Notes under the pieces: model-generated | The model's input: only the letters and a program-made list of their open reading frames with translations | Databases searched by the model: none | Told to the model about the DNA's origin: nothing | Assembly (NCBI GenBank): GCA_013286795.1 | Contig: JABDFA010000008.1 | Coordinates: 7,283-71,282, forward strand | Direction: 5' to 3' | Length of the DNA stretch: 64,000 nucleotides | From: Candidatus Babelota bacterium | GTDB taxonomy: Bacteria; Babelota; Babeliae; Babelales; JABDEC01 | Program-made: the position numbers and the translations under genes | Shown here: in pieces, positions 2,693 through 4,286 of the stretch | How positions within the stretch are numbered: the stretch's first letter is position 1 | How the letters are laid out: the number at the start of each line of letters is the position of its first letter

Positions 2693-3511
2693 ATGATGAA
2701 CTTAAATAGATTAAAAATTTTATTAACAGTAGTTTTAATTACTTTTGGTTTTTCAGCTAATTGTTTTGATAAAGAACCATCTGCTATGAAAAAGCTGTAT
2801 TGTAAAATAAAATATAGATCTCTTTCTGAAAGGGATTTGACTGAACAATTTTTGATAGCAGTAGTCAATGATGATATTAACAGGGTTAGTGATTTACTTT
2901 TATGTGGCGCAGATGTTAATTCAATATATATTGTCCCTGATCTTTCAAATGAAGAATTAAATCGATTAGGAATTGGGTTGGACTGGCGTGTATATAAGAA
3001 TAGGTCAGCTCTTATGTTAGCCCAAAGTTTTCCAATGGTAGAATTTTTGATTAAAAAAGGTGCTAATGTAAATTATGAAGCTCCAATTCCAAACGATAGA
3101 GCATATCATCATTTTATGAATATGGCTAATGTGCGATTACATGATAAAAATGTATTTGATGTATTAATGTTTACTTCTGTTTTAAAGAGTAAGCCAGAAA
3201 TGGCCATATGGATATTAAAAGCTGGTGGACAGCCAACCAAAGAGGCTATTGATAGGCTAGAAAGATTATCTGTAGATGGATCTTTATCTGAAAATGAACG
3301 TAGAACTGCACGTGCTATTTTAAGATATATTGAATTAACTAATCAAATAAAATTAGCAAGAAACAAAGCTCAAAGACAAAGAATAATACAAGAAGTGTCA
3401 GGACTACCAAGAGATTTAATAGGTTTAATGGGAGATTATATTGTTGGTGAAGATGAAGAAAAGAGAAATCAAGAGCCGGAATTAGTTGTTCATTTTCCTG
3501 AAGGTGTTTAA
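2693..3511 (+). CDS. Secreted ankyrin-repeat protein (tandem paralogue 1)
   Basis: AGGAGG 5 nt upstream of the ATG; signal-peptide-like N-terminus; ANK-like segments (LLLCGADVNSI, SALMLA...MVEFLIKKGANVNYE); C-terminal LPRDLIGLMGDYIVG motif. Confidence 0.85.
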   Translation: MMNLNRLKILLTVVLITFGFSANCFDKEPSAMKKLYCKIKYRSLSERDLTEQFLIAVVNDDINRVSDLLLCGADVNSIYIVPDLSNEELNRLGIGLDWRVYKNRSALMLAQSFPMVEFLIKKGANVNYEAPIPNDRAYHHFMNMANVRLHDKNVFDVLMFTSVLKSKPEMAIWILKAGGQPTKEAIDRLERLSVDGSLSENERRTARAILRYIELTNQIKLARNKAQRQRIIQEVSGLPRDLIGLMGDYIVGEDEEKRNQEPELVVHFPEGV

Positions 3512-3524
3512 TTTGGAGTCTGAA

Positions 3525-4286
3525 ATGGTTAACAGATTAAAAATTTTATTATCAATTACTTTATTTACGCTAGTTTTTTCAATTATTTGTTCTCAAAAAG
3601 AGCTATCATTTAGGGAAAAATTGTATTGTAAACTTTTTATTTCACAACGAGAATTAAATCAAGCATTCTTGGCTGCTGTTTTTCAAAATGATTTAAAAAA
3701 AGTAAAATATTATATCGATTGTGGTGCAGATGTTAATGCTATAAATATTTATACTCCTGAAGAATGGGAAAAAGTGGCTGTTGGATTCTTACATGACTAT
3801 CCAAATTATTCAGCCTTATTATTAGCTAGAAGTTTTCCTATGGTAGAATATTTACTTTCAAAAGGTGCAAATGTAAATTATATTGCTCGTTATATTTTTA
3901 ATAATGAACCTCATCAAAAAAATATATTGGATACATTGATTCCTATATCCATAATAAATAATAAGCCAGAAATTGCTATATGGATATTAAAAGCTGGAGC
4001 TAAGCCAACTAAGGAAAATATTGAAGGATTAGAAAGATTTTCTAGAGATGGATTTGAAGATGAAAATCAACGCAGAACTGCAAAAGCTATTTTAAGATAT
4101 ATTAATATAACAAAAGAGGCAAAGCTGAAAAGAAACAAGGCCCAAAGACAAAGAATTATAGCTAAAGAATCAAATTTACCAAAGGATTTAGTCCATTTAA
4201 TAGGAGGATACGATGTTGTGGGTGAAGATGAAGAGAAAATAAATCAAGAGCCAGAATTAGTTGTTCATATTTCTGAAGGTGTTTAA
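3525..4286 (+). CDS. Secreted ankyrin-repeat protein (tandem paralogue 2)
   Basis: ORF-track start 3486 trimmed to ATG 3525 (GGAG at 3515-3518; product then starts MVNRLKILL like its neighbour). Collinear with 2693-3511, including NKAQRQRII...LPKDLVHLIGGY...NQEPELVVH.SEGV. Confidence 0.85.
   Translation: MVNRLKILLSITLFTLVFSIICSQKELSFREKLYCKLFISQRELNQAFLAAVFQNDLKKVKYYIDCGADVNAINIYTPEEWEKVAVGFLHDYPNYSALLLARSFPMVEYLLSKGANVNYIARYIFNNEPHQKNILDTLIPISIINNKPEIAIWILKAGAKPTKENIEGLERFSRDGFEDENQRRTAKAILRYINITKEAKLKRNKAQRQRIIAKESNLPKDLVHLIGGYDVVGEDEEKINQEPELVVHISEGV

Follow-up and report, generated by a model that had tools for sequence, protein, structure and literature searches.

A conserved, predicted helical motif at the C-terminus of leader-bearing ankyrin proteins of a Babelota bacterium and ahead of WD40 propellers in related genomes

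A 64,000-nucleotide stretch of a Candidatus Babelota bacterium assembly (GCA_013286795.1, contig JABDFA010000008.1, positions 7,283 to 71,282; hereafter the window) encodes nine ankyrin-type proteins with a hydrophobic N-terminal leader, and here we analyse a short motif at their C-terminal ends. The window is AT-rich (26-36% GC), and its housekeeping genes include a ribosomal-protein operon of bacterial type. Its MurC is 73% identical to that of a Candidatus Dependentiae metagenome-assembled genome, the following 40 or so top matches are Babeliales/TM6 genomes of the same kind, and window proteins also match Logan contigs of run SRR8433578; the source is therefore an uncultured member of Babeliales (Dependentiae). 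In Dependentiae, the group to which it belongs, leader-bearing ankyrin proteins make up about 10% of genes and have no assigned function. Two publications (PMC4378268, PMC6561590) describe cultured Dependentiae as obligate intracellular parasites of protists with about 100 ankyrin proteins per member. The majority of these carry signal peptides (79 of 126 in Babela massiliensis, 78% of 98 in Chromulinavorax destructans), and both publications deduce secretion of the leader-bearing proteins into the host.

An earlier reading of the sequence, the original prediction, had listed nine ankyrin-type open reading frames (ORFs). All are present where it placed them, each with an ATG start (p1 to p9 in order along the window; Table 1). 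All nine have a hydrophobic 12-mer in their first 25 residues (Kyte-Doolittle 12-residue maximum 2.05-3.16). Leaders were judged by this hydropathy, and the Sec type assigned to them earlier is thus presumptive. Pfam Ank families match eight of the nine; the exception, p7, was assigned as ankyrin-like by homology, being 49% identical to its tandem neighbour p8. The proteins are paralogous over their whole length and include three tandem pairs, and so represent about six independent lineages, not nine. Identity is 57% within the tandem pair p1/p2, whilst motif carriers are otherwise only 15-30% identical to each other.

Close to the C-terminus these proteins carry a motif of 12-15 residues with the consensus Φ-P-x-[DE]-L-Φ-x-[LI]-[IV]-x-E-Y (Φ, hydrophobic), ending 3-20 residues ahead of the stop codon. 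Seven window copies are clear. The motif had been claimed for all nine proteins, but the p8 copy is shortened by three residues and the p3 copy is doubtful; the coordinates proposed for the p1 copy were exact. Its attribution to all signal-peptide ankyrin proteins of the window was overstated, as a tenth leader-ankyrin protein lacks it. Motif peptides include NMPKDLINLTGEYISG and DCLTDMPLDLIKIIAEYEP.

The motifs were aligned unguided by MAFFT of the full-length proteins, in which the Tyr is one of only six invariant columns at 15-25% identity. A position table was built on 19 motif copies and numbered relative to this Tyr (0). Y(0), L/V(-7) and [IVTMA](-3) occur in all 19 copies, [LI](-4) in 17 and P(-10) in 15, with Pro at -9 in p4, p5 and p9; E(-1) and [DE](-8) are each found in 12. 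With a hidden Markov model (HMM) of the combined motif, carriers scored at least 10.7 bits and the best non-carrier 4.6 bits among 5,502 sequences (894 thousand amino acids), with p8 at 3.7 bits. Leave-one-family-out HMM tests covered the window's 123 six-frame ORFs. When held out, p1, p7, p9 and p4 outranked every non-member, whilst p3, p5/p6 and p8 failed to do so, p3 scoring 1.6 bits, under a non-member. The motif is a real and conserved feature of these proteins.

Table 1. Leader-ankyrin proteins of the window, their motif copies, relatives from other contigs, and further features named in the text. aa, amino acids.
Feature	Coordinates	Strand	Evidence and remarks
p1: leader and degenerate ankyrin, 272 aa	2693..3511	+	Pfam Ank E=8.6e-5; tandem paralog of p2
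p2: leader and ankyrin, 253 aa	3525..4286	+	ORF and Pfam
p3: leader and ankyrin, 242 aa, doubtful carrier	11718..12446	+	Pfam Ank_2 E=2.6e-18
p4: leader and canonical 3-repeat ankyrin, 226 aa	15599..16279	-	Pfam Ank_4 E=2.8e-23; AlphaFold2 mean pLDDT 83.5
p5: leader and ankyrin, 248 aa	24053..24799	+	ORF and Pfam
p6: leader and ankyrin, 243 aa	24823..25554	+	ORF and Pfam; tandem paralog of p5
p7: leader and degenerate ankyrin-like, 278 aa	46655..47491	-	no Pfam match; homologous to p8, p1, p2
p8: leader and degenerate ankyrin, 257 aa	47493..48266	-	ORF and Pfam
p9: leader and ankyrin, 266 aa	49283..50083	+	ORF and Pfam
Tenth leader-ankyrin protein, 84 aa	13763-14017	-	weak Ank_2 match; without C-terminal motif
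p1 motif LPRDLIGLMGDYIVG	3404..3448	+	20 residues ahead of stop; 19.8 bits
p2 motif LPKDLVHLIGGYDVVG	4176..4223	+	20.2 bits
p3 putative degenerate motif ISGLVMDYLEL	12351..12383	+	without Pro, shortened
p4 motif FPELIGIIEEYTG	15638..15676	-	14.9 bits; AlphaFold2 short helix, residues 203-213
p5 motif IPVLDEEVMEYLVG	24728..24769	+	11.2 bits
p6 motif LPDVLNQEIIEYISG	25480..25524	+	18.5 bits
p7 motif LPNVLVDLTGEYIEG	46703..46747	-	18.7 bits
p8 shortened motif LPVNLTEEYME	47511..47543	-	three residues missing; only 3.7 bits
p9 motif IPNLIDIVNEYVG	50033..50071	+	3 residues ahead of stop; 14.8 bits
P0010 C-terminal motif			MPKDLINLTGEYISGE...
P0015 C-terminal motif			IPSEVINLIGEYITGE...
P0013 C-terminal motif			MPKALTDLVSEYM, then stop
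P0011 C-terminal motif			CCRDVTQLIAEYLD, then stop
P0018 C-terminal motif			FPKALAIIASGYSV, then stop
Leader-bearing WD40 protein, Babeliaceae metagenome-assembled genome	L028:16116-17384		sole non-ankyrin motif match in related loci
MerR-MurC interval, window	14111-16741		secreted content: ankyrin p4
MerR-MurC interval, relative	L088:8789-15740		secreted content: motif-bearing WD40 and Sel1
MerR-MurC interval, relative	L002:9443-13409		secreted content: small leader proteins
Leader and transmembrane segment, 153 aa	4383-4844	+	YENPPSYEETI, a PPxY WW-domain-binding motif; weak Pfam WBP-1 match, E=0.03
CaaX-bearing leader protein, WD40/beta-propeller, 419 aa	4838-6097	+	ends ...PECCCAIL, then stop (geranylgeranyl-type box)
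Leader-bearing protein, 370 aa (SRR8433578)	L082:8794-9906	+	no Pfam match; ends ...NTRRIKCCTIL, then stop
ORF of 282 aa between two ankyrin genes	48419-49267	+	serpin-family C-terminal end only; Pfam E=7e-5, profile positions 295-364 of 370
Leader-bearing protein, 444 aa	55075-56409	-	DUF5092 (E=8e-9) and Sel1/TPR repeats; without motif
Three tandem paralogous periplasmic-binding proteins beside a 1,016-aa dCache-type membrane protein	56548-63417	-	Peripla_BP_5/6

Two further similarities among the ankyrin proteins lie outside the motif. The genes of p4, p7, p8 and p1 share the leader start MNLNK(I) (DNA ATGAACTTAAAYAAAAT), their products being otherwise about 22-25% identical; among the relatives described below, P0010 begins MDLNLFKK and P0015 MNLSLFKK. 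A second conserved helix, [AK]x-I-L-x-[YF]-[IL] with an invariant Ile, is located 30-45 residues upstream of each motif (p1 residues 205-213, p4 residues 176-184) and is internally duplicated in P0015 (VAKEILSFLVAKEILSFL).

We searched a full-length profile of p1, p2, p7 and p8 against 1.84 billion representative proteins. Five single-stretch relatives were found (E 1e-17 to 1e-24), all with the motif at the extreme C-terminus, and a partial ORF adjoining P0011 terminates in LPEAVTDLISKYM followed by a stop. Three of the six relatives (P0013, P0011 and P0018) terminate 0-2 residues past the Tyr. P0018, from a different sample, adjoins the same HAD-hydrolase gene and is therefore a syntenic ortholog of p1; P0010 belongs to the window's own sample (SRR8433578) but to another contig. 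As judged from the sequences, the conserved unit is the helix itself and the acidic tails of the window proteins are dispensable.

The same search also yielded about 140 generic ankyrin proteins, none of which scored above 3.3 bits with the motif HMM. A MurC-anchored scan of GTDB genomes gave 46 other Dependentiae loci (MurC neighbourhoods, 820 kb), whose leader-ankyrin proteins, about 15 in number, lack the motif as well; these loci hold no ankyrin-type carrier and one WD40 carrier. Within the window, at least 19 other leader-bearing proteins lack it. No relatives were found in a scan of IMG/VR or in one of JGI metagenomes, the latter giving only two unrelated ankyrin loci. The distribution of the motif is therefore narrow, and it is not generic to ankyrin or exported proteins. 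Word-indexed homolog searches with p1 and the family profile recovered, apart from P0018, scarcely anything but proteins of the window itself, and an edge-protein search for contig extension gave short Logan contigs only.

The one WD40 carrier, a leader-bearing protein of a Babeliaceae metagenome-assembled genome (MAG), places the motif in a second context. It reads ...KALKEVLADCLTDMPLDLIKIIAEYEPHRIEG and then passes directly into the first WD40 blade. The pattern L.DCL..[ML]P[LM]DL[IV]..I..Y.P is retained in four orthologs that are 41-48% identical. In this ortholog set P, D, L, I and Y are invariant, the region upstream of the motif is variable, and about 12 residues separate the motif from blade 1. 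A second, neighbouring WD40 gene has FPPELIALIASY / FPPELIALIASYG at the same position. Aligned by hhalign, the ankyrin and WD40 copies matched at Prob 85% and P=6.5e-6, a score reached by 0 of 100 column shuffles; this P overstates independence since the WD40 copies had been selected from about 5,000 ORFs by the motif HMM, and the independent support for the WD40 copy is its conservation across orthologs. These comparisons indicate that the motif behaves as a portable module, C-terminal to Ank in the window and N-terminal to WD40 in related genomes.

The relatives' WD40 gene sits between MerR and MurC, where the window has p4. Across the three loci compared (Table 1), the interval looks like an effector island of variable content within conserved gene order.

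Structure prediction indicates that the motif is an amphipathic alpha-helix with the Pro as its N-cap. More than half of its surface is made up of hydrophobic positions (-7, -6, -4, -3, 0 and +1). The AlphaFold2 (AF2) model of p4 has a confident ankyrin stack (predicted local distance difference test, pLDDT, above 90) and a long helix at residues 171-199 holding the ILNYI-type segment. After a Pro break, a short helix (203-213, PELIGIIEEYT) follows at pLDDT of about 55, and then a disordered tail. The p7 model was poor overall (mean pLDDT 65) and its motif likewise of low confidence. The p4 model matched only designed ankyrin repeat proteins (DARPins) in Foldseek, at E of about 1e-9. The alignments behind these models were very shallow (9 sequences). 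Taken at face value, the models suggest that the motif helix may be free for partner binding and may fold on binding.

A truncated C-terminal F-box (PRANC) is found on poxvirus and Orientia/Rickettsia ankyrin proteins, and the original prediction had suggested that the motif may be a minimal F-box-like hook. The part of this that stands is a real, conserved motif on leader-ankyrins; the family membership does not. Pfam F-box, F-box-like and PRANC gave no match at E<=1 with full-length proteins or at E<=10 with the C-terminal 49 residues. PDB profile searches with the C-terminal module and with the motif returned no F-box chain, and their best matches (LemA 2etd, E=0.14; naphthoate synthase, E=0.08) were dismissed as chance. 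We also built a local F-box HMM from 11 Pfam-validated F-boxes, all of which match Pfam as controls. Motif carriers did not rise above background among 5,250 ORFs. With the --max setting the HMM gave at most 0.2 bits at the motif and one 5.8-bit match in P0015, upstream of its motif; carriers otherwise ranked from 80 into the thousands.

The similarity that does exist is weak and confined to one helix. Like F-box (PF00646, PF12937) and PRANC (PF09372), the motif starts Φ-P-x-[DE]-[LI], has hydrophobics at +7 and an aromatic at +10, and is attached to Ank (C-terminally) or WD40 (N-terminally) scaffolds of host-directed proteins. In hhalign, its Leu-Pro (LP) fell on the LP and its Tyr on the [YFC] position of the F-box, with Prob weak at 1-22%. 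With all copies together P was 0.0046; the WD40 subset by itself gave 0.001 and the ankyrin subset 0.022. The 70-residue module gave 0.043, with 2 of 300 shuffles reaching the score. The F-box is a three-helix domain of about 40-50 residues or more, with helices 2 and 3 and a conserved Trp, all missing from this motif of 12-15 residues. Helices 2 and 3 are absent because three of the relatives end so soon after the Tyr and the WD40 copies lie so close to blade 1; p9 and p8 have 3-5 residues left after the motif. PRANC, with its own profile and about 60-100 residues after Ank, shares only the placement C-terminal to Ank, and no similarity of the motif to either family was found at HMM level.

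The SOCS box of ASB (ankyrin) and WSB (WD40) proteins is likewise a C-terminal module after ankyrin repeats. Five Pfam-validated SOCS boxes (PF07525) served as comparator. They aligned by hhalign at P=0.022-0.028 through their terminal LPxxLxxYLxxY helix, whose pattern LPxxLxxΦLxxΦ is in register with the motif (for example ASB9 LPEDLKQFLLHL and SOCS2 LPTRLKDYLEEY). With the whole C-terminal module only 11 columns aligned, comprising the LP helix, at Prob 0.8%. A SOCS box consists of a BC box with a Cul5 box after it, in collinear order across about 40 residues. No collinear BC box ([STP]LxxxCxxxΦ) stands upstream of the motif, the upstream ILNYI helix being rejected as one in the module comparison, and the WD40 relatives carry the motif N-terminally instead of C-terminally. 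The resemblance is therefore not F-box-specific, at least for the ankyrin copies, and the motif, which is too short and too dissimilar for the F-box name, lies outside the F-box, PRANC and SOCS-box families.

By helix length and placement, the motif can be likened to the DDB1-binding H-box of DCAF receptors, HBx and SV5-V, a family without a diagnostic sequence in which a single short alpha-helix of about 13 residues suffices for docking. The DCAF H-box is found just N-terminal of a WD40 propeller, as is the motif in the Babeliales WD40 relatives; placement C-terminal to ankyrin would be atypical. H-box sequences are notably dissimilar among themselves (PMC8056151).

Other motif classes were judged by inspection, on spacing alone. 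Spacing was unsuited for CRM1 nuclear export signal classes, the LC3-interacting region (LIR, [WFY]xx[LIV]), YxxΦ sorting motifs and the clathrin box. A CaaX box on the ankyrin proteins and a lipobox were also rejected, as was a sortase- or exosortase-type sorting signal, for which a transmembrane segment or basic tail is missing.

We tentatively read the motif as a lineage-specific modular helix that docks secreted repeat scaffolds to a host partner, for which a ligase adaptor is the foremost candidate; this is possible rather than probable. The reading rests on the presence of the helix on two unrelated, fast-diverging scaffolds, on its hydrophobic surface and on the host-type motifs of neighbouring proteins. 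CaaX and PPSY, both on leader-bearing neighbours, are functional only in the eukaryotic cytosol and therefore point to a host-directed context. The carriers would be exported by Sec and then delivered to the host, where the flexible helix would bury its hydrophobic side, the invariant Tyr included, in a groove on a single shared partner, whilst the variable Ank or WD40 repeat domain would bind differing targets. Such an arrangement would follow, by analogy, the logic of cullin-RING ubiquitin ligase substrate receptors. Candidate adaptors for so short a helix would be Skp1, via an F-box helix-1-like contact, DDB1 and Elongin C. That it is a one-helix universal hook for such a host cullin-RING adaptor (Skp1/DDB1/Elongin C), evolved or F-box-derived and usable at either protein end, is a somewhat unlikely idea; if true, it would establish a minimal motif class, so far undescribed, for hijacking ubiquitin ligases.

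Several points weigh against a docking helix. In statistical terms the similarity to F-box helix 1 is weak, and the terminal helix of the SOCS box scores equally for the ankyrin copies (P=0.022). Amphipathic helices with an LP cap are common and recur in several ligase-receptor modules. The low AF2 confidence stems from the shallow alignments and would be compatible with intramolecular packing, and the selection of the WD40 copies by HMM reduces what their match can tell. The host partner, exposure to the host cytosol and the link to ubiquitin ligases are all things we infer.

A true minimal F-box/PRANC, cut to helix 1, binding host Skp1 and making the carriers substrate receptors of a Skp1-cullin-F-box (SCF) ligase, is decidedly unlikely. 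The LP-on-LP and Tyr-on-[YFC]L register recurs in every hhalign comparison, with the observed scores reached by only 0-2 shuffles, the WD40 copies also fit the FBXW-type prefix D-Φ-[IL]-[ST]-x-[LM]-P, and the architecture parallels that of FBXW proteins and of the poxvirus and Orientia Ank-PRANC proteins. The profile searches and the F-box HMM nevertheless gave it nothing, the SOCS-box end does as well for the ankyrin copies, and the interface of the Skp1-Skp2 complex takes in all three F-box helices, two of which, with the Trp, are absent here. An F-box protein and many ubiquitin-system proteins are reported for Babela massiliensis (PMC4378268), which is in favour of this reading. The same helix could instead be a structural element that caps or auto-inhibits the repeat domain or homo- or hetero-oligomerises the paralogs. 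It has an a/d-like hydrophobic pattern, its ΦΦxEYΦxG stretch is similar to the way ankyrin helix 2 begins (IVEYLVGKGA), and it comes after the conserved long ILNYI helix. This too we judge improbable by a good margin, since AF2 did not dock it confidently even beside a well-predicted stack, the motif also precedes WD40 propellers, which are a different fold, and generic ankyrin proteins do without it.

A bacterial tag for sorting or secretion, which type II secretion, outer-membrane-vesicle loading or a chaperone would recognise in the periplasm, is unlikely, and we know of no linear type II secretion signal. All carriers have an N-terminal leader, and on the ankyrin proteins the motif is terminal with a variable, dispensable tail after it. 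One study reports only Sec and type II secretion/type IV pilus machinery in Dependentiae (PMC4776705), so a second signal would be needed for crossing the outer membrane. This alternative, which the original prediction had also raised, is weakened by the motif-free leader proteins of the window, including the WD40-CaaX, PPxY, Sel1/TPR and HAD hydrolase proteins, and by the motif-free leader-ankyrins of other Dependentiae. The N-terminal location in the WD40 relatives further implies that the motif is not position-dependent. Shared ancestry alone, with the motif a functionless leftover of recent paralogs, is scarcely credible. Whole-length paralogy, the three tandem pairs and the decay of the motif in p8 and p3 would fit it. 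The Tyr, however, is among the six invariant columns despite low overall identity, and the motif is kept in relatives from other samples and on the unrelated WD40 scaffold of the 41-48% identical orthologs, though the adjoining N-terminal region varies.

Should the partner of the proposed docking helix be a cullin-RING adaptor, a motif much smaller than the F-box and PRANC domains would suffice for the hijack. As a portable helix on divergent ankyrin and WD40 effectors, it offers a handle for fishing out a common host partner, and as a sequence signature it allows one effector class to be counted across MAGs. An LPxxL... helix alone is no ground for an F-box label. The carriers resemble the leader-ankyrin effectors of Babela massiliensis and Chromulinavorax destructans in phylum and in leader plus Ank architecture, but the leader-ankyrins of the other Dependentiae loci differ in having no motif. 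A shared C-terminal motif goes unmentioned in the term-matched passages of the literature on Babela, Chromulinavorax and TM6 comparative genomics; we found no earlier description of the motif.

Several neighbours of the ankyrin genes are of interest in their own right (Table 1). The CaaX-bearing WD40/beta-propeller protein, encoded downstream of p2, has an N-terminal segment, NVSRDIRNKILRFLYLP, that is vaguely motif- or F-box helix 1-like, at a low score. On the contig of P0010, the adjoining leader-bearing protein of 370 aa has a tail combining a polybasic stretch with CaaX. The PPxY protein, the serpin-like ORF and the DUF5092 protein are listed with them. The three periplasmic-binding proteins and the dCache-type membrane protein probably form a sensory or uptake cluster, unusually large for a reduced genome.

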